Source: Promethearchaeota archaeon (GTDB lineage: Archaea > Asgardarchaeota > Lokiarchaeia > Sigyniarchaeales > Promethearchaeaceae). Taken from it: DNA of 32,000 bases. The position numbers and the translations under genes are program-made. A model generated the notes under the pieces. That model ran no database searches, was not told the DNA's origin, and saw only the letters and a program-made list of their open reading frames with translations. The stretch spans positions 330,001 to 362,000 of the forward strand of contig JAFGBS010000009.1 in the NCBI GenBank assembly GCA_016933055.1, written 5' to 3'. Of the stretch, positions 14,464 through 28,570 are shown one piece after another (position 1 is the first letter of the stretch; each line of letters opens with the position of its first letter).

Positions 14464-15585
14464 TTGAGGGAAATTATGACAAGTTATGAACGTTCTATTG
14501 CTGCAATTGAACATAAATCCGTTGATCGGTTTCCTATTATATCCCTAGGTGTCGATTATGCTTTTTACAATGAATTTATGGAGGAAATTGGTTTCACACC
14601 AGAAGAAGTAAAGCAATATGCAACTGATGGGATATTAACTGGACCTCCTTGGTCACATGGTGTGAATGTAAAATTAGGTGTGGATATCGATTGGACTTCT
14701 ATGAGAGCCAGACAACATTATGATCATGAGACCCATCAAATTCTAGATACATTTGGAGGAATTGATAAAGTTGTGGTGAATGATAGTGGTATTCCCCATT
14801 TGTGGTATGTTAAACCATTCCTTACGTCCAAGGAAAAAATTAAAGACTGGTGGAATTTGGGGAGACCGAAACCTTACACGAACGCTATGATCAAACCTTT
14901 AGTAAAAATTATGCAGACGCTTATAGATAAATACCAAATGTTAAGTATGATTGGCTTACCAGGTCCATGGGAAAACTTGCATATGTCAATTGGAATGGCA
15001 CAAGTTGCGAAATTTTGTCGAAAAGATCAACGATTTCTCGAGGAGATTTTGGAAAAAAATTTTGAAGTTCAAGGAGATGGTTTGGAGCGTATAATGAAAT
15101 TAGGAAATCCTCCCGTTGTCATGTGTGGCGATGACTATGGATTCAATCAAGGTCTCCAAATGCCTATTAAATATTGGAGACAATTTATCAAGCCCATCTT
15201 AAAAAGGTATGTAGAAATCGTACATAGTTATGGATCTAAATTTCTATTACACTCTTGTGGTAGCATAGGAGATATTTTTTCCGACTTAATAGAAATCGGA
15301 GTGGAGGGTGTGGAATCTCTGCAACCAACGATAAATGATCTTGTGACGCTCAAACACAAATACGGGGATAAAATCGCATTATTAGGAACGATAGATGATA
15401 CTAATCTCTTGGTGAGGGGGACAACCGAGCATGTTTGGAGTGAAGTAACGAATTCAGTTAAGTTATTGGGAAAGGAAAGTGGGTATTTGCCGGGTGCAAC
15501 AAATACGCTCCTTAATGCGAAAGTTAGTAATGTGAAGACTATGATTGAAGCAATTCAAAGTATGAATCCTCAATATGTAATTTAA
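14464..15585 (+). CDS. Uroporphyrinogen decarboxylase / MtaA-CmuA superfamily protein
   Basis: MTSYERSIAAIEHKSVDRFP, DTFGG, CGDDYGFNQGLQM, LLHSCG, IGVEGVESLQP, LLGTID. TTG start 6 nt after GGAGGTG (14451-14457). Confidence 0.87.
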   Translation: MREIMTSYERSIAAIEHKSVDRFPIISLGVDYAFYNEFMEEIGFTPEEVKQYATDGILTGPPWSHGVNVKLGVDIDWTSMRARQHYDHETHQILDTFGGIDKVVVNDSGIPHLWYVKPFLTSKEKIKDWWNLGRPKPYTNAMIKPLVKIMQTLIDKYQMLSMIGLPGPWENLHMSIGMAQVAKFCRKDQRFLEEILEKNFEVQGDGLERIMKLGNPPVVMCGDDYGFNQGLQMPIKYWRQFIKPILKRYVEIVHSYGSKFLLHSCGSIGDIFSDLIEIGVEGVESLQPTINDLVTLKHKYGDKIALLGTIDDTNLLVRGTTEHVWSEVTNSVKLLGKESGYLPGATNTLLNAKVSNVKTMIEAIQSMNPQYVI

Positions 15586-16247
15586 TAACGGTATCTCCAT
15601 TCTTGTCGGCATTTCTTACAATAATATTTTTTCGCGAATGACCCCCTACCGGGATCGGGCATTTCTTGACACTCCATTTTCCCACATTTCGGGCATTGAA
15701 TTATTCCATTTTCGGGGTAATCAATTTCTACAACTTGTCTTTGCAAGCTTCTAGGATCGGCTGCATTAAAACTTGCAAGATTGGGGGTAGGTTCCTCCTC
15801 AAATTCAGGTGGTTTTTGGACTAATTCTTTGTATAGTTGAGCTTCGGATGAGACTGATTGAGGATCTACTTCAGATGGTGAGAATAAACTGGAGGGTTTA
15901 ATTAAACCAATATCTTGTTTTTTAGATGTTGAAATAGAAGGGGTGATATTTCTTCCTTGGGATTTTGTAAACGGTTCCAATTTTGCCATGGATAATTCAT
16001 CAAGTTTCTCTACAATGATATTTAATTTTGCAGTTATTGCAGTAAACATAGATTGATAATCGGGTATGGGTGCGCATTCTTCTGGAATTTGTTTTAGTAT
16101 CTCTTCCATTTCAAATAATTCATTTTTAAGTTTTGTATTCTCCTCTTGTAATGAGAGGATTTGTTGTTTCAATAGCTCTTTTAAATCATTTAGCTTGGCG
16201 ATCTGTTCATCTTTCGCTTTAATTAAATTTTCCATACCTTTGTCCAA
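15582..16247 (-). CDS. Hypothetical protein: N-terminal coiled coil, low-complexity linker, C-terminal Zn ribbon
   Basis: Heptad-rich LIKAKDEQIAKLNDLKELLKQQILSLQEENTKLKNEL; C-terminal CPKC...CKKC...W. Confidence 0.75.
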   Translation of the reverse strand: MDKGMENLIKAKDEQIAKLNDLKELLKQQILSLQEENTKLKNELFEMEEILKQIPEECAPIPDYQSMFTAITAKLNIIVEKLDELSMAKLEPFTKSQGRNITPSISTSKKQDIGLIKPSSLFSPSEVDPQSVSSEAQLYKELVQKPPEFEEEPTPNLASFNAADPRSLQRQVVEIDYPENGIIQCPKCGKMECQEMPDPGRGSFAKKYYCKKCRQEWRYRY

Positions 16248-16404: not shown

Positions 16405-16420
16405 AAAAATTAAAAAAAAA
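16405..16420 (-). terminator. Putative oligo-T archaeal terminator
   Basis: T9 and T5 runs on the minus strand immediately after the stop at 16423. Confidence 0.45.
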
Positions 16421-16422
16421 TC

Positions 16423-18204
16423 TCAGTTATTATTGGTAAACACTTTTCTCTCTTTTAACATCGCCTTGAATATTTTTTCATAATAAATTTGATTTTTAAC
16501 TTGAGGTTTATTGATATCCAATGTGACATTGTATAGATAAGCATTTTTTTGGTCATATACTATTGAAGCTCTTACAATATTTCCATCTAACTCAAATTCT
16601 GCATCAATTGCTCTCCGTGTCAATTCTTCCGTCTCCTCCGTTTCTGCACTTATCATTTCTATTGAATCTAACCATTCATTGAAATTATCCATATTCAATT
16701 TTTCGTCAAAATTTAAAAATACCGATAGTGTATCATCTAATCGTTTTGTCATCCATTGGAGGGTCCTCAAAATCAGAAAAACGAGTCCAACCCATAAAAT
16801 AAGATTTATGCCAAACCATAAAATGACACCCCAAGGACCAGATGGAAGAGATAATCCAAATAACCTTGGAAAAGTTTCTTCAGTAGAAAAACTATATTCC
16901 CCCACAATTAATGCTAGGATCTCAAAAGCTAATGAGCCTGACATAATCACTTCCAATATCTGCATTTTATTTTCTTGACGTTCCGCTGATTTGAACATAC
17001 GACGTTGAATCTGAGCAGTATCTTTTATACCCCGAAAAATCTGTTGAAGGCGTTTTTCTTGGATTACAGATATTTGATTTTGAAGGTTAGTTACTTCATT
17101 TTCTAACCCTTTTATGAGATCAGCAATATCATCAGCGCGTTCCCAATTTGATTGTAAAGTCTCTCTAATTTCCAAAATATCAGAAAATTGAGATAGATCT
17201 TCATTGAAATGTTTCTTGTGTACATTATATTCATCAAATGCATCCTTGATAGAATTTTTTATAAAAGAACTCAATTCAGACATTAACACACATTCTGCTG
17301 TAACAGCTGCCAATGTCTCTTGTGCTTTTCCAACTGCACGCGGGTCTGTGTGGAAGTTATTCGTCATCTCTTTTACTTCCTTAATCTCATCACTCACACT
17401 AAAAAAGAGATTGAAATAATTAGAAATAAACACGCTAACTGAGCGTGCAAAAGCAAATTGCACTAAAATCGGTTCATAATACGATAAATCTTTACTTATT
17501 AATATAGCTCCTGCGGTTCCGATGAAAACCTTATCTCCGTTTTTTAAATCCTTTGCTTTTTCAATATAATCCAAAATTTGACGCAGTTCTGATTCCTTTT
17601 CTCTCTTATCTAAGTATTCCTCAGCGGTTAAATTCGGTTCCATCGACTCTCCTAAAATCATGAAATATTTTTGGCGATAAAGTGCTCTTCCATAATAATT
17701 AAGATTCAGTAGTTCACGTTGATGTTCAGATAATAAATCATGTAATAGTTTTGATGAATCAAATGCAATATCGGTACTTAAGCGAGGAATATAATCTAAA
17801 TACAGTATATCACTCCTTCCTTGTGCTTCTATTACATCTATCCCACAAATTACTCTACCATATTGGCTGATCGATATTCCTATTTGTTCTTTTTGGATAA
17901 TACCTTGCTCTTCCGGATACATTATTTCTGTCACAAAATTAGAATACTCTGAAAGGGAGAATGACAATAATTCAACTTGTGTTTCTATAGATGAAGTTTC
18001 AACAACAGTAGAATTTGGGAGTTTATCGCGATCGGCAGTAATATACGTTTTTTTAATGTCATTAAAAGCATTTAGTTTTGTATTAAATGCAAACATTTCA
18101 TTACGATGAAATGGAATATATTCTGAAACTAACAGCTTCAAGTTTCTTATTCCGAGAATTTCGGTAAGGCTATTATCTCGTATATTGTGTATTTTCTGAT
18201 TCAT
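16423..18204 (-). CDS. Hypothetical membrane protein with CorA-like architecture (alpha/beta domain, long helices/coiled coil, two TM helices, C-terminal soluble domain)
   Basis: Coiled coil DLIKGLENEVTNLQNQISVIQEKRLQQ, then TM segments ILEVIMSGSLAFEILALIVG and GVILWFGINLILWVGLVFLIL; no GMN motif. Start set at ATG 18204 (MNQKI), 10 nt after GGAGGT; the ORF track gives 18222. Confidence 0.7.
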   Translation of the reverse strand: MNQKIHNIRDNSLTEILGIRNLKLLVSEYIPFHRNEMFAFNTKLNAFNDIKKTYITADRDKLPNSTVVETSSIETQVELLSFSLSEYSNFVTEIMYPEEQGIIQKEQIGISISQYGRVICGIDVIEAQGRSDILYLDYIPRLSTDIAFDSSKLLHDLLSEHQRELLNLNYYGRALYRQKYFMILGESMEPNLTAEEYLDKREKESELRQILDYIEKAKDLKNGDKVFIGTAGAILISKDLSYYEPILVQFAFARSVSVFISNYFNLFFSVSDEIKEVKEMTNNFHTDPRAVGKAQETLAAVTAECVLMSELSSFIKNSIKDAFDEYNVHKKHFNEDLSQFSDILEIRETLQSNWERADDIADLIKGLENEVTNLQNQISVIQEKRLQQIFRGIKDTAQIQRRMFKSAERQENKMQILEVIMSGSLAFEILALIVGEYSFSTEETFPRLFGLSLPSGPWGVILWFGINLILWVGLVFLILRTLQWMTKRLDDTLSVFLNFDEKLNMDNFNEWLDSIEMISAETEETEELTRRAIDAEFELDGNIVRASIVYDQKNAYLYNVTLDINKPQVKNQIYYEKIFKAMLKERKVFTNNN

Positions 18205-18206
18205 AC

Positions 18207-18893
18207 CTATTGTAACCTCCATTCTTCTGGTTCTTTATCATCATTCCTCTCTTTAGCACGTAGGAATATTTTGATGGTTTTTTTATCATCGATTTGAAGA
18301 TATCCGTATTTTTCATCTCGCCTTGCATAGTTAATATAAAAAGGAAATTTTGGAAAATAAGGTTTAGAGGAATAAGATATATCTTCGATCGTTGTAATAT
18401 CAGAATCAGTCCGTGAATTGCATGATTTGCACATCAGATAAATATTATCTTGGGGGTTTTTCTCGTATCGAACACTCAACAACTCATTGCATTGATTACA
18501 CCGAATAATTTTATCCATCTTTCTCATGTATTCTTCGGGAATTCCAATTTTAAAGCCCTTTTTAGTCACTCGGTAGGCAGAAATCATTTTGGAGCTTTGA
18601 GAAATCAATTTTAAACATTCCACAAGATCTAATTGTCTGAGATCAACAATATCGTCTTCGGCTTCTTGGCTAATATTAAAAAACATTCGCCCATTGACCG
18701 TATCGACACTCAATGGTGCATAATCATAACCCGTAAATACTTGATCGATAATTCCTTGAAAAATAAAAGTTCGCAATGCCAATTCCTTTAACCAGACATC
18801 TGGATCCTCTAAATTTCTCCCTATATTCGAAAATTGGGAAATCAAGTAAAGTAGTTTTTTCTGGTCATCAGTTAATTCTAATGGAGACATCAT
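18207..18893 (-). CDS. Hypothetical protein, winged-helix-like domain plus Zn ribbon
   Basis: LTDDQKKLLYLIS..., YDYAP, NISQEAEDDIVDL, wing motif AYRVTKKG, then CNQC/CKSC. Confidence 0.72.
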   Translation of the reverse strand: MMSPLELTDDQKKLLYLISQFSNIGRNLEDPDVWLKELALRTFIFQGIIDQVFTGYDYAPLSVDTVNGRMFFNISQEAEDDIVDLRQLDLVECLKLISQSSKMISAYRVTKKGFKIGIPEEYMRKMDKIIRCNQCNELLSVRYEKNPQDNIYLMCKSCNSRTDSDITTIEDISYSSKPYFPKFPFYINYARRDEKYGYLQIDDKKTIKIFLRAKERNDDKEPEEWRLQ

Positions 18894-18934: not shown

Positions 18935-18955
18935 AAAAAAAGATTTGTAAAAAAA
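18935..18955 (-). terminator. Putative oligo-T terminator after the kinase gene
   Basis: Two T7 tracts (18949-18955, 18935-18941) on the minus strand just downstream of the stop at 18968. Confidence 0.4.
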
Positions 18956-20624: not shown

Positions 20625-20960
20625 TTAACTTTCAAGTTCCAATAAGTTTCTTATAAATTTCTTTCTTAATCCATCAATTCCGAACAACTCTTTGAAGTAG
20701 TATTTATTTTCGTTGGGTAGGTAAATTACTGGAGTGTATACAGTACAACCCTCTATATCACAAAATGTCTGGATGAACATCTCATTATGTAACAATTTGT
20801 CCACGACTTGCTGGTCCTCTACTGACCATTCCTCAAATCTAATGTCCTCTTCCTTTAACCAACTTTTCAAATCTGAGCATTTACTACAATTTTCTTTCGT
20901 AATTACTTTAAATTCTTTCATGATTGCTTTGAATTTAAAAAACATCTTAAGTATTCTCAT
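20625..20960 (-). CDS. Glutaredoxin/thioredoxin-fold protein (CSKC)
   Basis: KVITKENCSKCSDLKSWL...YTPVIY. Probable start is the Met at 20921. Confidence 0.75.
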   Translation of the reverse strand: MRILKMFFKFKAIMKEFKVITKENCSKCSDLKSWLKEEDIRFEEWSVEDQQVVDKLLHNEMFIQTFCDIEGCTVYTPVIYLPNENKYYFKELFGIDGLRKKFIRNLLELES

Positions 20961-21085
20961 TTACTGAACAAATTTTTTTCTCAATTTTTTCCTTTGAAAA
21001 TTTTGTATATCTTCAAGCTAACTTATTACAAATTAATAAAATATATTCTGATTGTCACAGAATTTTTTTTTTGATTGGGTGAATG

Positions 21086-21093
21086 TTTATATT
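21086..21093 (+). promoter_or_regulatory. Putative TATA box for the leaderless grx-FTR unit
   Basis: TTTATATT 24-31 nt upstream of ATG 21117. Confidence 0.4.
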
Positions 21094-21116
21094 TAATTTG
21101 AAATGAGTAAAGAATT

Positions 21117-21425
21117 ATGACTGAAACTATACAACGCATTAACTATACTTTTGAGGGTAATAAGGATATTGGGAAAGATGTCACCGTATATGCTCTTTCA
21201 ACATGCGGTTTCTGCCGTCGAGCTCTTCAATTCTTACGAGATGCTGACTGTAAATTCAAATTTGTCTATGTGGATAAACTCCCATACGAAACCAAACAAC
21301 AATTAAAAGAAGAACTACAAGATAGATATGAAAAACGAGTAGTATTTCCTTATTTAGTTATAGATGACTCAGATGTACTTGCTGGTTTCGTAGAAGAAGA
21401 TTGGAAAAACACCTTAGGACTTTAA
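21117..21425 (+). CDS. Glutaredoxin (NrdH/Grx-like, CGFC)
   Basis: VTVYALSTCGFCRRA, VVFPYLVID, LAGF. Confidence 0.88.
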   Translation: MTETIQRINYTFEGNKDIGKDVTVYALSTCGFCRRALQFLRDADCKFKFVYVDKLPYETKQQLKEELQDRYEKRVVFPYLVIDDSDVLAGFVEEDWKNTLGL

Positions 21426-21446
21426 TTTATCTATTACTATGATATA

Positions 21447-21797
21447 TTGATCATTATGCCAAATAGGAAAACACTGAAGGATACAGAAAAATTTGTATTT
21501 ATGGTAGCGGAAAAACAGGATTGGGAACTACATCCAGATAAAGAATTCTTAAAAATGCTATGTGAGGGATTAACCGAGAACTGGAATCGATATGGTTACT
21601 ATTCATGTCCATGTAGGGACGGATCTGGAAGTAAAATAACCGATAATGATATCATCTGCCCATGTGATTATTGCGAACCAGACCAACAAGAATATGGACA
21701 CTGTTATTGTGGATTATATTTAACAAAGGAATTTGCAGCCACAGGAAAAATACCCAAATACATACCCGAACGTAGACCAGAAGAAAAAATCCAATAA
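21447..21797 (+). CDS. ftrC: Ferredoxin:thioredoxin reductase catalytic subunit-like protein
   Basis: YGYYSCPCR, ICPC, GHCYCGLY (CPC/CPC/CxC cluster and disulfide motifs). Likely start is ATG 21456. Confidence 0.9.
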   Translation: MIIMPNRKTLKDTEKFVFMVAEKQDWELHPDKEFLKMLCEGLTENWNRYGYYSCPCRDGSGSKITDNDIICPCDYCEPDQQEYGHCYCGLYLTKEFAATGKIPKYIPERRPEEKIQ

Positions 21798-21804
21798 GCT
21801 ATAA

Positions 21805-23658
21805 TTATATTAAATTGCAAATTCGTTCATTTTTTTTTATCCCTTTCAAAATTTGGATAAATCTATGATTCCAAAGTGTAGATAAATAAGTACTTATTTG
21901 CTCATGAAAGGAATTATTCGCTATATCAGTACGATGGATATTAAGGGATGGAGTCTCCGTTAATATTTGCTGAATATGAGAATCTAGCATTACACTAAAA
22001 TTGTATATTCCTTCCCAATTTACCTGGATTGATTGGATCCATTCATTATACTCAGATATCGATAAATATAGTAAAACCATAACCCCATTCAGCAACGTAT
22101 ACAACTTTTGGTACAAATCAGAATTAGTGGACTGGAATCCCATGTAAGAAAGAGAATTTGATAGAAAGTGAAACAATCGATATGTTGTTTCATCATTTTT
22201 AGGGACGCAGTAATAAGGAACTTGCTTTAAATAGATGAAATCTAACCGAGTAGACCGGATTGCACCTGCGTAGACAATTTTATATAAATACCATGCGAAA
22301 AGTTTGGAATTAAGATAACATAATAGATAAACCCTAAGAAATTCATTAGTTAATGGCTTTTTTAACTCTTTAAGGAAAATGTTTACTACTGTATCAAAAC
22401 ATACATATTTACCTGATGGGGGTCTTCTGCTAAAAACTAGTTTATAATGGGGAACTGGCTTTTTTACATGAGCATTTGCAAGCTGTCCTAGTATTTCCCC
22501 CAAAAATGTTGTTTTTCCGTCTAATATACTTCTGCAGATTCCTTTCCTAATAGGTTTTATATGAAATTGCCCAATTAGTTTTCCCTCGATACAGAAAAGG
22601 AAATTATTTTGGTAACGATTTATGGTTTTAGCTTGGTTTTGAATGTTCAGGCCCCTATATGCTTTAATACAACTTTCTAGAGTTTTTTTATGTATTTGCA
22701 AGTCTTGATATAACAAATATTCTTGATGAGTCAAACTCAAGATCAATGAATTTTTTTTAATTTTTTCCGTTTTCTCAATAGATATTCGACTTCCTTCGTT
22801 AGTCTCAGTAATATAATGCGTTCTAGATGCATCTTTTCCTGTAACAAGTAAAATTTGCTCCAATTTTACCTTATTAAACGCTTTACTAATATCTTGGATA
22901 AATATTAAATCTCTAAGAATACATATTTTCAAGGAATTCCACCGTCTACTGTATGCGAGAGATTTAGGGAGAATAAAACCCATTTTTCCTTTTTTTTTTA
23001 GAAGAGCTTTGCATAATAGGAAAAAATACGCAGCAGAATTTTGAATAATTGATGGATATAGCTTTCTCATACGTTTTAGGTGTGCCGTTTCTATGAATGC
23101 ATTGTAGGGAGGATTACATAATATTACGTCATATTTTTTGTCCGGGTCATATATATCGAAGAAATTTGCATATTGGATGGTTTGTAATAAATTATGGCAT
23201 TCATTTTTGATTACAGATAAAGAAAAGGGATTTTTTTTATGAAGAGGATTTAAAGACCAATATACAAGTCGTAATCTGCAGAGTTCTACTGTCTTATTAT
23301 TTATATCAAAACCATAAAGGCAATTATGCACAATCTTTTTTCGAATTTTCACTTCCTCATTATCCGAAATTATTTTTCCAGCAAGAATCACAGATAAAAC
23401 GTAATTTGCTGCTGCTATCAGAAACTCTCCGAGACCGCATGCAGGATCTAATATCTTAATATTGAGTAAATCTTCTACTTTTTTATCATTGAAACAATTT
23501 TCAGTTAATTTCACGGCAATATCAGGGGGTGTAAAAAAAGAACCAAGATTCTTATTCAAAAATTGTGGATAAATCTGAGAGAAAAGTTTTGCATTTCTCT
23601 CTTCTTCTGTCCATTTCGGGTTTGTATATATTTCGTAAAGTATCTGATCAATTTCCAT
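21805..23658 (-). CDS. N6-adenine DNA methyltransferase, gamma class (TaqI/Eco57I-like) with C-terminal TRD
   Basis: GSFFTP, ILDPACGLGEFL, LYGFDIN, ILCNPPY, GKMGFILP, YLLCYLNSKLF. Confidence 0.87.
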   Translation of the reverse strand: MEIDQILYEIYTNPKWTEEERNAKLFSQIYPQFLNKNLGSFFTPPDIAVKLTENCFNDKKVEDLLNIKILDPACGLGEFLIAAANYVLSVILAGKIISDNEEVKIRKKIVHNCLYGFDINNKTVELCRLRLVYWSLNPLHKKNPFSLSVIKNECHNLLQTIQYANFFDIYDPDKKYDVILCNPPYNAFIETAHLKRMRKLYPSIIQNSAAYFFLLCKALLKKKGKMGFILPKSLAYSRRWNSLKICILRDLIFIQDISKAFNKVKLEQILLVTGKDASRTHYITETNEGSRISIEKTEKIKKNSLILSLTHQEYLLYQDLQIHKKTLESCIKAYRGLNIQNQAKTINRYQNNFLFCIEGKLIGQFHIKPIRKGICRSILDGKTTFLGEILGQLANAHVKKPVPHYKLVFSRRPPSGKYVCFDTVVNIFLKELKKPLTNEFLRVYLLCYLNSKLFAWYLYKIVYAGAIRSTRLDFIYLKQVPYYCVPKNDETTYRLFHFLSNSLSYMGFQSTNSDLYQKLYTLLNGVMVLLYLSISEYNEWIQSIQVNWEGIYNFSVMLDSHIQQILTETPSLNIHRTDIANNSFHEQISTYLSTLWNHRFIQILKGIKKNERICNLI

Positions 23659-25441
23659 TTAAATCATCGGGGATATAACCGCTTGATTGTGCATTATAGA
23701 GTTTTCGATATATTCCATTGGGTAGTTGCATTAGTTCTTCGTGCGTACCACGTTCAGCAATACCCTTTTTCGTCATTACTAAAATCTCATGTGCATTCTT
23801 TATTGTGCTTAAGCGATGCGCAACTGCAATTGTCGTCCGTCCTTTTGAAAGATCATCAAAAGATTTCTGAATTTCTATTTCAGTATGTGAATCTAAGGAT
23901 GAGGTTGCTTCGTCTAGAATTAAAATTGGAGGATTTTTTAAGAACACTTGGGCTATTGCAAGTCGTTGCTTTTGACCCCCCGAGAGTTTAATTCCCCTCT
24001 CTCCCACTATAGTATCATAGCCCTCAGGTAATGTCATAATAAAATCGTGCAGTTTTGCACTTTTAGCAGCCCTGATAATTTCCTCATCTGTCGCTCCTGG
24101 TTTTCCAAATTCAATATTTTCACGGATGGTTCCATAAAATATGAAAACGTCTTGATACACAATTCCAATATTTTTACGCAGCGATTCTAATTTTAAATCT
24201 TTAATATTTATATCGTCAATAAAGATTATTCCATTTCCTTCTTTGACGTCATAAAATCTCGGAATGAGATGTACCAGGGTTGTCTTTCCCACTCCGCTTG
24301 TTCCAACGATACCTATTTTCATTCCTGGTTCTATCTCGATATTAAAATCATTTAAAATCCAACTATCCTCACCCTCTTCGTTATATCGGAAAGAAACATT
24401 TGAAAATTCAATTTTTCCTTTTGGATACGTTAAATCAACTGCATCCTCTTTTTCAAGCATATCTGATTTAGTTTCCATTAAATCATGGAACCTTTTAAAT
24501 CCTGCATATCCAGATTGGAAGATCTGGGTGAATTGGATTAATCTACGAATAGGTGTAATGAAGTATGCAACATAAAGAAGATAAGCAACTAACTCACCGT
24601 ATAAAATAGTACCATTATACACGAATAATGCACCAGTAAATATTGCGGCTAAACTCAGTAAATCCATTAAGAAGTTATTACCTGCGCTGAATTCCCCTAA
24701 GTGCTTATAAGATTTACGATATGATTCAACATATTCCATATTCTTTTCCAGAAACTTATCAATTTCATAAGATTCATTAGTGTAACTTTTTGTGCTTCGA
24801 ATCCCAGAAATGCTGGATTCAATCCTTGCGTTTATCTTCGCATGACTCTCTCTTACACCTCGGAAGGTGGTAACTAATTTTGTTCGTTTAGCTAATGAAA
24901 AAATAATCAGAAGGAATACAATAATAAAAATAATTCCTGTAATCAATGGGTTTATCGTCATCAATATAATGAATGATCCAATTATCATAATCATGGATAT
25001 GAACAAGTCCTCGGGTCCATGGTGTGCCATTTCAGAAACTTCTCTTAGATCCCCAACAATCCTTGACATTAATTGCCCAGTGCGCATATTATCAAAGTAC
25101 GAGAAAGGCATTTGCTGGATATGGATAAAAAGATCTTTTCTCATATCTCCTTCCATGTAAGTTCCTAAAAGATGCCCATAATAGGACATGATATAGGATG
25201 CTATCATCTTTATAATATATAGAAAAAATAAAACACAAGAGAAAATGATGATCATCTGGATGTTTCGATTAGGTATCCAATTGTCTATATACCAGCGTGA
25301 AGAAATAGGGAAAATTAAATCAAGAGCAGCTGTTAAGGTTGCACAGATCATATCTAAAATAAATAGACCTTTGAATGGTTTATAATATCGAACAAATCTA
25401 CGAAAAATTTGCATTTTGTGTGAAGGAATATCACATAACAT
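23648..25441 (-). CDS. ABC exporter, fused permease/ATPase (ABCB/MsbA/YwjA-like)
   Basis: TM domain with MSRIVGDLREVSEMAHHGPED; GTSGVGKTT, LSGGQKQR, ILILDEATSSLD, VAHRLSTI. Confidence 0.95.
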   Translation of the reverse strand: MLCDIPSHKMQIFRRFVRYYKPFKGLFILDMICATLTAALDLIFPISSRWYIDNWIPNRNIQMIIIFSCVLFFLYIIKMIASYIMSYYGHLLGTYMEGDMRKDLFIHIQQMPFSYFDNMRTGQLMSRIVGDLREVSEMAHHGPEDLFISMIMIIGSFIILMTINPLITGIIFIIVFLLIIFSLAKRTKLVTTFRGVRESHAKINARIESSISGIRSTKSYTNESYEIDKFLEKNMEYVESYRKSYKHLGEFSAGNNFLMDLLSLAAIFTGALFVYNGTILYGELVAYLLYVAYFITPIRRLIQFTQIFQSGYAGFKRFHDLMETKSDMLEKEDAVDLTYPKGKIEFSNVSFRYNEEGEDSWILNDFNIEIEPGMKIGIVGTSGVGKTTLVHLIPRFYDVKEGNGIIFIDDINIKDLKLESLRKNIGIVYQDVFIFYGTIRENIEFGKPGATDEEIIRAAKSAKLHDFIMTLPEGYDTIVGERGIKLSGGQKQRLAIAQVFLKNPPILILDEATSSLDSHTEIEIQKSFDDLSKGRTTIAVAHRLSTIKNAHEILVMTKKGIAERGTHEELMQLPNGIYRKLYNAQSSGYIPDDLNGN

Positions 25442-27040: not shown

Positions 27041-28570
27041 TCAGAATTCTAGAAAATCATATAATAATTTATTCAATAAACGGTAAAATTTGATCGCGCC
27101 TGTATTTTTGAAGAATTTAAACCAAGGTAATATTGGATAGCAGTCTAATGTTGTATCATCATTCAATTTTCGTAGCAGAAAAAGAAATGAAAGATACTTA
27201 AATGGGTTTATTGAATTGCGTTCCAAAATCAAGAATTTAATTATATGGCGTAAATAATTTTTATTGATAAAAATGATTGTGCTAAGAAACCCCCATTGAG
27301 ATGAAAGGGAATTATATAATGATTCTTTTTTCATATCAGAGATTCCTAAATCTTGTGCTGTATAGTACTGAATGTGCTGCAATATAGATTGATTAAACTT
27401 AATTCGTAAAGCTTCTACGATTATCTTACGTTCATTAGTAAATACTATGGCAAGTTGATCGTTTGGACCAATACTCTCCTTGAAACATTGAATTATATTT
27501 GAGGGTAAGGACCAATAGGATAATTTTCTCGGATTTAAGAGAAATCCACATATTCTGGTGAACAGTCGAACATACCCATTGTAGATAATAGGACGGGGAA
27601 TAACATCCCATAGTTCTTCATTTTTTTTAACAAAATAAAGAAATCTCTGAAGTAAATATTCCAATCGCTTATCAGAAAGTGGAAAATCAGACTCACACAG
27701 ATCAGAAATAAAATCGTAGCACCAATCTATGTCAACAAAATAACCCACTTTCGCCCTATGTCTCTTAGTATATTCTCTTTTAAATTCTCTCATGAAATGG
27801 ATCCACCGATAATGATCTTTAATGGTAGTTCGACCAAATTCATAAGGTTTTGAGATTAGAATAGAGGAAGTATTTTTCTTGAGAAAAGTAACATACCAAT
27901 CCTCATCGAAAAATGTAATTGGTATTGTTTCATTTTTGAATTCGCACTGAAATTTCGCGAAATATTCCTTATAATTAACGAATTTCTCAGTAAAATAACT
28001 TATAGTTGAAATTAAACGAATTTGGGGATAAGAAACGATGAAGTTTTTTACGCATCCCTCCAGTAATAATTCAAACAATTGTATTAACTTTAATTCTTCT
28101 TTCTCGGAGTTTTGAATAATTTGAGAAAGATTTCGTAGATAATCAGCATCAATTATCTTCATTCGACCCAATTGGGCAGCATACTTATTTTGAATGAAGG
28201 TACAAACTGATTGGAATACATTCTTCTTTTCACCTTCTAAATTGAAATTTTCAGGAATTACATCCAATATGACATCTTGAATCGTCGTTTGTTTTATGGT
28301 TAAATTTACTAAAAGAGATTCCATTATCAGTCTTCTATTATAATCATATACAATTATTAGGAAATCATCCCTCTCATCTATGAACGCTAAATATTTTGTT
28401 AGAAGTTTGTAAGCATGGTATAAATTGATATATTTATTTAAAAAAGGGATTTGTATATCTTCTAATTTCTGTAAACTCATAAATGATCGATTTGTATCTC
28501 CCACCAATGAGGACTGTTCGAAATTGGAGATTGTTTTATAAAAAATTGCTAGGTCTTCAAGATATTTCAT
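27041..28570 (-). CDS. Hypothetical protein with three internal ~150-aa repeats
   Basis: 509-aa ORF with ATGA overlap to the upstream stop and AGGAG SD; no recognised family. Confidence 0.8.
   Translation of the reverse strand: MKYLEDLAIFYKTISNFEQSSLVGDTNRSFMSLQKLEDIQIPFLNKYINLYHAYKLLTKYLAFIDERDDFLIIVYDYNRRLIMESLLVNLTIKQTTIQDVILDVIPENFNLEGEKKNVFQSVCTFIQNKYAAQLGRMKIIDADYLRNLSQIIQNSEKEELKLIQLFELLLEGCVKNFIVSYPQIRLISTISYFTEKFVNYKEYFAKFQCEFKNETIPITFFDEDWYVTFLKKNTSSILISKPYEFGRTTIKDHYRWIHFMREFKREYTKRHRAKVGYFVDIDWCYDFISDLCESDFPLSDKRLEYLLQRFLYFVKKNEELWDVIPRPIIYNGYVRLFTRICGFLLNPRKLSYWSLPSNIIQCFKESIGPNDQLAIVFTNERKIIVEALRIKFNQSILQHIQYYTAQDLGISDMKKESLYNSLSSQWGFLSTIIFINKNYLRHIIKFLILERNSINPFKYLSFLFLLRKLNDDTTLDCYPILPWFKFFKNTGAIKFYRLLNKLLYDFLEF

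Follow-up and report, generated by a model that had tools for sequence, protein, structure and literature searches.

The locus described here raises the question of whether two abutting genes of an Asgard archaeon, one for a small winged-helix and zinc-ribbon protein and the other for a membrane protein that recalls the CorA channels, encode the two halves of a single machine, and of what such a machine might do. The window, by which we mean the whole stretch of DNA analysed, comprises 32,000 nucleotides (nt) of a Promethearchaeota archaeon of the Lokiarchaeia (assembly GCA_016933055.1, contig JAFGBS010000009.1, positions 330,001 to 362,000), whose genome amounts to 3.76 Mb in 36 contigs and is 91% complete. 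Positions 16423-18893 of the window are occupied by two minus-strand open reading frames (ORFs), here called gene 1 and gene 2. They are not chance reading frames, since protein database searches returned homologues of both, with E values between 1e-22 and 1e-192, and the genome contains one copy of each. The reading that we favour, to which we would give about an even chance, is that the two products are subunits of one membrane complex, a CorA-type gated cation channel.

The two genes are very closely linked. Their junction reads, in the direction of transcription, GGAGGT, five further nucleotides, the TAG stop codon of gene 1 (18209-18207), GT and the ATG of gene 2 (18204-18202). Judged from the sequence, the GGAGGT is Shine-Dalgarno-like and suggests translational coupling of the pair. 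An alternative in-frame ATG of gene 2 at 18222 would give a protein of 599 amino acids (aa) overlapping gene 1; both the protein database entry and the Atlas record begin at 18204 (593 aa), and residue numbers of gene 2 refer to this shorter form unless stated otherwise. The first-pass annotation, which was made by a model from the sequence alone, had described a bicistronic unit with tight coupling, a TAG-gt-ATG junction and an internal GGAGGT, and all of these can be read in the sequence.

The pairing is conserved well beyond this genome. Homologues of gene 2 were found in 50 of the 400 genomes of the phylum, representing 23 of its 85 genera. The window's own family is represented by 13 other genomes, none of which has one. 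We took 29 foreign Asgard loci, two of which end at a contig edge; in all 27 that retain upstream DNA gene 2 is immediately preceded, on its own strand, by a gene 1 homologue that abuts or overlaps it, with gene 2 identities across the paired loci of 24-36%. The named relatives are metagenome-assembled genomes (MAGs) of Promethearchaeota, Sigynarchaeum and Helarchaeota, and in another Promethearchaeota MAG the two proteins bear consecutive locus tags. Within these loci, which reach about 1.5 kb to each side, no neighbour other than the pair itself is conserved beyond close kin. A wider contig search with a seven-sequence alignment returned only three loci, all from Asgard or uncultured archaea, and no non-Asgard outgroup.

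In other lineages the two genes are one. An exhaustive search with gene 1 returned 331 representatives at E<=1e-3, many of them 750-1500 aa long, and in nearly all of the long homologues the gene 1 region is followed at once by that of gene 2. These fused proteins bear the motifs DYDYAP, NISQEG, EDVSY and EWIPFG, and their named members are a protein of Chromosphaera perkinsii, a second one in EukProt, one of Candidatus Wallbacteria (on an 841-kb contig) and one of a MAG labelled only as a bacterium. In the Atlas, the clusters that combine both families consist wholly of Eukaryota (100%), Oomycota and Chlorophyta being the commonest. The split forms extend to non-Asgard archaea, among them members of the Methanococcales, Thermoplasmatota and Thermoproteota, as judged by Pfam name and Atlas taxa. 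The pair is thus a conserved, self-contained two-gene unit equivalent to a single-chain protein in eukaryotes and bacteria. The fused protist proteins that the first-pass annotation had mentioned do exist, with the motifs that it listed; its proposal that both ORFs should match the halves of one fused protein is borne out by the long homologues, and the synteny that it suggested checking is found at every testable Asgard locus. Its description of the pair as a split archaeal version of a protein shared with eukaryotes stands as regards the fused eukaryotic forms but is too narrow, as Wallbacteria carry the fused form as well.

An unrooted maximum-likelihood tree was built from 60 gene 2 regions. 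A well-supported branch (SH-aLRT 99) divides it, with 26 fused proteins to one side and all Asgard split forms to the other, and the eukaryotic forms are not seen nested within Asgard. As this tree has no outgroup it cannot show the source of the eukaryotic form, and since the family is also found in bacteria and non-Asgard archaea and its tree does not nest the eukaryotes in Asgard, it is weak evidence on the origin of eukaryotes. One fused protein (P0005, 755 aa, on a 2532-bp contig of the Joint Genome Institute, JGI), with 42% identity to the gene 2 of the window, nests in the window's own Asgard clade and not with the other 26; as read from that one 2532-bp contig, gene 1 and gene 2 would seem to have fused a second time, independently. 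Among the long fused proteins, a SprT-like metalloprotease domain was weakly matched at the N-terminus of P0143 (E 6e-6, 26.4 bits, just above the 25.6-bit cut-off), and the corresponding match at the N-terminus of P0046 is below the cut-off.

Both proteins are already catalogued. Precomputed Pfam annotations in the protein database assign gene 1 to PF27231, and gene 2 and all of its homologues to PF27230; the Atlas (Pfam 38.1) names these MJ1567 and MJ1566_N, both families of unknown function, and records the fused architecture PF27231+PF27230 for eukaryote clusters. The names are those of two Methanocaldococcus jannaschii proteins with consecutive locus numbers, from which the pairing may be taken to hold in Methanocaldococcus too. 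Our local Pfam set, which does not include models of these two families, and NCBIfam gave nothing above cut-off for either protein. CorA, Mrs2 and magnesium all go unmentioned in two 2026 papers on structural homologues shared by Asgard archaea and eukaryotes. What goes beyond the catalogue is therefore not the proteins but the proposal of a two-subunit CorA-type complex without GMN, the motif by which CorA channels are defined, and the relation of split and fused forms across the domains of life. The name 'WD repeat-containing protein 35' that JGI gives to several family members was rejected as annotation spill-over, as these proteins have no WD repeats. One eukaryote-type protein of 1507 aa (P0082) joins WDR35/IFT121 domains (Beta-prop_WDR35_2nd at E 1e-101, and TPR_WDR35) to MJ1567 and MJ1566_N; it may be a true fusion, or two neighbouring genes that were merged in the gene model, and joining of this type is probably how the JGI labels arose.

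That the two products bind each other is well supported by structure prediction. The complex model of gene 1 with gene 2 scores 0.72 (0.68-0.76 in three runs), while the best of three controls scores 0.00; this value is reached by 58 of 80 solved complexes and by 2 of 110 mismatched pairs, a calibration that is only rough here, with alignments of our own. Between runs at least 77% of the contacts are the same, and the partners have a predicted local distance difference test (pLDDT) score of at least 75. In gene 1 the predicted interface is made of residues 56-79, which include YDYAP, a beta-hairpin and NISQE, and of residues 168-187 (IEDISYSSKPYFP); these segments touch the beta-sheet and the first stalk helices of gene 2, and the contacts of lowest error are those of gene 1 residues 174-183 with gene 2 residues 23-25, 89-91, 109-125 and 241-249. 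Eight of the 13 invariant residues of gene 2 fall in the interface (Q104, E106, D137, R141, D145, R177, E206 and Q209; Fisher p = 2e-5). The first-pass annotation had singled out a list of motifs in the two genes, every one of which is present in the translations. Since the predicted interface uses YDYAP, NISQE and the conserved tail of gene 1, these motifs would mark the seam between two halves of one complex. A sequence search of the Protein Data Bank (PDB) found no solved complex similar to this pair, and with the family profile it returned only a designed coiled coil and noise.

The structure of gene 1 is consistent with a role in binding protein rather than DNA. Its sequence contains GYDYAP, FNISQEAEDD, AYRVTKKG, CNQC...CKSC and IEDISYSS, and a winged helix followed by a zinc ribbon, as the first-pass annotation had proposed, is what the AlphaFold2 (AF2) model and the VIA-align fold comparison return. 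For residues 1-128 all 50 of the VIA-align matches listed are winged-helix proteins or domains (Z 8.2-9.9), among them TubR (Z 9.9), RosR (9.5) and MarR (9.5). The domain has a beta-hairpin inserted between YDYAP and NISQE, and its third helix, ISQEAEDDIVDLRQLDL, which stands at the position of a recognition helix, is acidic, with a calculated net charge of -5.2. A basic recognition helix fit for the DNA major groove is therefore absent by this calculation. The isoelectric point (pI) is 4.84 for the domain and 5.3 for the whole protein, and the third helix is acidic in the family consensus as well (NISQEGxDDIxDLRE). The wing carries a positive charge (+3.7). Given the charge of the helix, the pI of the domain and the conservation of this acidity in the family, canonical DNA binding by gene 1 is unlikely, and the earlier suggestion of DNA sensing is not upheld.

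In the zinc ribbon, two CxxC knuckles sit on a small beta-sheet. Three of the four Cys residues are invariant or nearly so among the split forms, and they are lost in several of the fused eukaryote-type forms. Pfam matches of gene 1 to zinc ribbons are weak (E 0.005-0.2, all below cut-off). Foldseek gave no match of gene 1 at E<=0.001; its weak matches mix zinc-ribbon proteins (aIF2-beta, eIF5, Rpb9) with PadR and MarR proteins.

Gene 2 has the architecture of a CorA channel. Modelled by AF2 from 32 aligned sequences, it shows in turn a cytoplasmic alpha/beta domain, stalk helices and two C-terminal transmembrane (TM) helices, and the last stalk helix (346-434) runs unbroken for 89 residues into TM1. 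Lys and Arg number six before TM1, one in the loop between the TM helices and two after TM2, which together with the acidic character of that loop predicts a topology with both termini in the cytoplasm, as in CorA. The sequence contains SEYIPF, and VGEY at the end of TM1. The alpha/beta domain holds most of the invariant polar residues, namely the eight of the predicted interface and Q162. TM1 is strongly conserved over 65 family members: a Gly in 64 of them is followed by Ala and Phe, a mid-helix position, which is E428 in the window's gene 2, is Asp or Glu in 51, and the outer end has Gly in 59, Glu, Asp, Gln or Asn in 51 and Tyr, Trp or Phe in 55, giving the family consensus G-[ED]-[YW]-[ST].

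Fold comparisons return the CorA superfamily throughout. CorA and Mrs2 make up almost all of the top matches that Foldseek lists (best E 2.4e-4, probability 1.00). With VIA-align the matches to CorA, ZntB, MRS2 and CmaX span residues 19-490 of the model: TmCorA at Z 8.9 (253 residues aligned, model residues 20-486), the soluble domain of MjCorA at 8.8 (root-mean-square deviation, rmsd, 2.2 A over 130 residues), EcCorA at 8.8, CjCorA at 8.5 (rmsd 2.1 A), ZntB at 8.2, MRS2 at 8.0 and CmaX at 7.3. The alpha/beta domain itself matches CorA and ZntB soluble domains (4egw_A, Z 8.8, rmsd 2.2 A, 130 aligned; 8zah_A, Z 8.5; 3nvo_B, Z 8.2). The weight of this evidence, as we see it, would lie in the consistent return of every branch of the superfamily over the whole chain of the model. 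Profile comparison of the gene 2 family with 26 Asgard CorA sequences (hhalign) gave a weak signal, at E 1.3e-5 over 150 columns, covering residues 252-446 of the 599-aa form, that is, stalk and TM1 only. In this alignment VGEYSFS of gene 2 lies over AGIYGMN of CorA. The first-pass annotation had recognised a CorA/ZntB-like topology without GMN, and the AF2 model, Foldseek and VIA-align agree with it; it had further placed GEY where CorA has GMN, and while GMN is indeed absent, it is SFS that lies over GMN and GEY that lies over G-I-Y. The additional C-terminal domain, which it put at about 90 aa, is present and measures about 100 aa in the model; its own fold matches are middling (Bet v 1/SRPBCC-like and AP-2 appendage folds, Z 6.6-7.5).

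Several observations weigh against a CorA-type channel. The GMN (or GxN) at the outer end of TM1, the defining CorA filter, is absent from gene 2, and the CorA profile PF01544 does not match the protein even at E<=1 in local Pfam; in a whole-genome scan with PF01544 gene 2 again went unmatched, though two canonical CorA genes were found. The hhalign probability is no higher than 80%. TM-scores (template modelling scores) of the Foldseek matches are low (0.16-0.38), because the long helices sit at different angles, and the VIA-align values alone are not decisive, because generic helical bundles reach equal fold scores and all Z values of gene 2 are below 9. The G-[ED]-[YW] motif is missing in one Asgard clade (L010-L014). 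The enrichment of invariant residues in the predicted interface is perhaps partly circular, because structure predictors lean on conserved columns. Finally, a literature search on PF27230, PF27231, MJ1566 and MJ1567 found no paper. We conclude that gene 2 is probably a distant relative of CorA, and that it should not be filed as CorA, since the profile match and GMN, the two defining tests, both give a negative result. The two canonical CorA genes lie on the same contig (139912-140790, minus strand, and 286300-287130, plus strand; 261 and 136 bits to PF01544); standard magnesium channels are thus already present in the organism. In a small genome sample two carriers of the module (G011 and G015) have no PF01544 match.

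By analogy with CorA we infer a channel function for the complex, and would picture it as follows. Gene 2, with both termini in the cytoplasm, would belong to the CorA/Mrs2/ZntB structural superfamily as a highly divergent form, and gene 1 would clamp its cytoplasmic domain through YDYAP, NISQE and IEDISY-PYFP rather than bind DNA; protists and some bacteria would make the equivalent assembly as one chain. As CorA is a pentamer, the complex too is likely to form an oligomer, with a central pore lined by TM1 that would pass cations. The conserved mid-membrane acidic residue and the outer G-[ED]-[YW] would take the place of the GMN magnesium filter, so that cations might pass under different rules of selectivity. 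Gating of CorA is set by Mg2+ bound between the cytoplasmic domains. In the gene 1/gene 2 complex the junction of the subunits, packed with invariant charged residues, could be the cytoplasmic sensor that opens and closes the pore. Such gating by a composite head would parallel both that of CorA and that suggested for the CorA effectors of type III CRISPR (clustered regularly interspaced short palindromic repeats) systems, divergent CorA-family proteins with a unique N-terminal domain that act as ligand-activated membrane effectors and in which a conserved residue cluster at the domain interface has been proposed as the site of the ligand SAM-AMP (PMC10600005).

The absence of GMN and of a PF01544 match would suit a membrane-anchored scaffold or signalling complex that is no channel at all, in which the stalk and TM helices anchor and oligomerise a cytoplasmic head that binds a partner or a small molecule. 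It is the head, and not the membrane part, that holds most of the invariant residues of gene 2, the C-terminal domain is weakly like the ligand-binding Bet v 1/SRPBCC folds (Z 6.6-7.1), and some eukaryote-type members carry further cytoplasmic domains (ANKRD40_UBL, and the weak SprT-like match). However, the conservation of TM1 goes well past hydrophobicity, in its Gly, Ala and Phe, its acidic position and its G-[ED]-[YW], which would not be expected of a mere anchor, and the whole CorA architecture is kept, including the continuous helix from stalk to TM1. We therefore regard a scaffold as unlikely, while taking it seriously.

The patchy distribution of the pair among genera and its absence from the rest of its own family, together with a layout in which the small gene comes first and is tightly coupled, recall a conflict system (toxin-antitoxin or defence), with gene 2 as a membrane-permeabilising effector and gene 1 as the partner that neutralises or senses, comparable to the CRISPR CorA effectors and the Panacea antitoxins. 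CorA-type defence effectors have a precedent (PMC10600005), and the Atlas structure search of gene 1 lists SocA/Panacea-like clusters (TM 0.43-0.47), with a feature match of 0.89 to a cluster of which 16% of members carry SocA/Panacea. Yet these Atlas TM values are below 0.5, PADLOC has no credible match for either protein, PF13274 is unmatched in gene 1 (E<=1) and at the module both in the window's own genome and in the sampled genomes that bear it, no defence genes recur beside the pair, and stable fusion across many eukaryote lineages is unlike toxin-antitoxin pairs. A conflict system thus seems improbable to us. The Panacea/SocA lead was dropped, as a scan of 81 genomes with PF13274 hit a single unrelated gene and left the module unmatched. 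That gene 1 is a DNA-binding regulator held at the membrane by gene 2 and freed on a signal is very improbable: in fold it comes closest to regulators of the MarR, PadR and RosR types (Z 8-10) and its wing is basic, but the helix at the recognition position and the domain as a whole are acidic, the most conserved residues face gene 2 rather than solvent in the complex model, and permanent fusion to a membrane protein in protists and bacteria argues against release.

Returning to the channel, we would tentatively go one step further, with somewhat less than even confidence, and propose that the pair is the prototype of a heteromeric branch of CorA-type channels, with a composite sensor for a ligand or ion, formed jointly by gene 1 and the cytoplasmic domain of gene 2, and with G-[ED]-[YW] and a ring of acidic residues in the membrane in place of GMN. 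Archaea, a small number of bacteria and numerous protists would have this branch in common, and in those protists Mrs2 and Alr1 would then be joined by one more CorA-like transport system, the third and so far unstudied. In prokaryotes and mitochondria it is chiefly through CorA-type channels that magnesium passes, and GMN counts as the hallmark of these channels. The widespread family described here keeps the CorA architecture without GMN, has an added C-terminal domain and relies on a second subunit, which in eukaryotes is welded on. It has only automatic catalogue entries, and in some public annotations it wrongly bears the name WDR35. In the archaeal split form the two proteins are small and can be expressed separately; with them the role of the fused protist protein could be probed, and also whether the scaffold of CorA now serves another ion or ligand-gated signalling. 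The interpretation offered by the first-pass annotation thus holds for the conserved module, the folds and the fused proteins, and not for DNA sensing or for a range limited to archaea and eukaryotes.

The features of the module are collected in Table 1. T-tracts on both sides of it, as the first-pass annotation had reported, are read in the sequence. The upstream tract lies between the stop codon of a gene for an FGGY kinase (18970-18968) and the start of gene 1 and would probably terminate transcription of the kinase gene, hold the promoter of the module, or do both. Archaeal transcription terminates at oligo-T, and by comparison with this known mode of termination the runs behind gene 2 are likely to be an archaeal oligo-T terminator. 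A promoter and terminator scan gave matches at the level of shuffled sequence only, with a bacterial consensus unsuited to an archaeon.

Table 1. Positions in the window of the two genes, their domains and the signals around them.
Feature	Position	Strand	Description and basis
T-rich intergenic tract	18935-18955	-	two T7 runs (18955-18949, 18941-18935); sequence read
Gene 1	18207-18893	-	228-aa small subunit, PF27231 (MJ1567); ORF, precomputed Pfam, AF2 mean pLDDT 85.2
Winged-helix domain of gene 1	18510-18893	-	residues ~1-128; VIA-align fold matches, AF2 model
Zinc ribbon of gene 1	18420-18500	-	CNQC ... CKSC; CxxC knuckles, three short strands at residues 139-163 in AF2 model
Conserved tail of gene 1	18330-18389	-	IEDISYSSKPYFPKFPFYI; predicted docking on beta-sheet and stalk of gene 2 (complex model)
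GGAGGT	18215-18220	-	Shine-Dalgarno-like, within the end of gene 1, 10 nt ahead of gene 2 ATG; sequence read
Gene 2	16423-18204	-	593-aa membrane subunit, PF27230 (MJ1566_N), CorA-like architecture; ORF, AF2 mean pLDDT 82.8
Cytoplasmic alpha/beta domain of gene 2	17497-18153	-	residues ~18-236; AF2 model, matches to CorA/ZntB soluble domains
Helical stalk of gene 2	16975-17487	-	residues ~240-410; AF2 helices 240-282, 289-330, 346-434
Membrane part of gene 2	16738-16974	-	TM1 (~411-437), acidic outer loop (438-456), TM2 (457-489); AF2 model, alignment
Extra C-terminal domain of gene 2	16426-16734	-	residues 491-593, beta-alpha-beta4-alpha, predicted cytoplasmic; AF2 model
Oligo-T runs	16405-16420	-	T9 (16420-16412) and T5 (16409-16405), directly 3' of gene 2 stop; sequence read

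The neighbours of the pair in the window are ordinary metabolic genes, for the FGGY kinase, a URO-D-like protein, an SCP2 protein, a flavin adenine dinucleotide (FAD) oxidase and glutaredoxins. An ORF of 221 aa (15582-16247, minus strand) lies 175 nt downstream of gene 2 and combines an N-terminal coiled coil with a C-terminal CPKC...CKKC zinc ribbon, with no Pfam match; in the other loci, which reach about 1.5 kb to each side, it does not adjoin the module. A redox cluster at 20625-21797 consists of a glutaredoxin-like ORF (a weak match), a glutaredoxin and a homologue of the catalytic beta chain of ferredoxin-thioredoxin reductase, the last two adjacent on the plus strand. Further along, two minus-strand genes (21805-23658 and 23648-25441) overlap by 11 nt, an N6-adenine DNA methyltransferase overlapping the end of an ABC transporter gene in which ABC_membrane and ABC_tran domains are fused. 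The methyltransferase is N6_Mtase/Eco57I-like, with PADLOC matches to type II/IIG methylases, and no restriction partner was identified. Elsewhere, between a methyltransferase gene and the gene for a DUF362 protein, is an ORF of 509 aa (27041-28570, minus strand) with no Pfam match at E<=1e-4.

As to known systems, the two proteins are members of PF27231 and PF27230 and differ in nothing from these families, for which the catalogue gives no function. Gene 1 has its fold in common with the MarR, PadR, RosR and TubR winged-helix proteins (Z 8-10, with 70-98 residues aligned), and differs from them in its acidic third helix, in the beta-hairpin inserted between helices 2 and 3, in the appended zinc ribbon and in being predicted to bind protein, not DNA. 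Gene 2 resembles the CorA of Bacteroides fragilis, a type III-B effector activated by SAM-AMP (PMC10600005), in joining a divergent CorA membrane part to a distinct cytoplasmic domain, a likeness drawn from the description and not from sequence comparison; in contrast to that effector, the pair has no CRISPR or defence genes nearby, its partner is a winged-helix/zinc-ribbon protein rather than a nuclease, and its family is conserved in eukaryotes. The nearest architecture is that of the CorA, Mrs2, Alr1, ZntB and CmaX channels (the MIT or 2-TM-GxN superfamily, PF01544; PDB 4ev6, 5jrw, 8zah, 3nvo, 8ts1 and 7nh9). Gene 2 shares with these channels the cytoplasmic alpha/beta domain, the stalk continuous with TM1, the two C-terminal TM helices and a topology with both termini inside, whereas its N-terminal domain is larger than that of CorA, its outer loop is longer and acidic, and it has the added C-terminal domain of about 100 aa. 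Unlike canonical CorA proteins, the family of gene 1 and gene 2 has an obligate extra subunit, or its equivalent as an N-terminal fusion.

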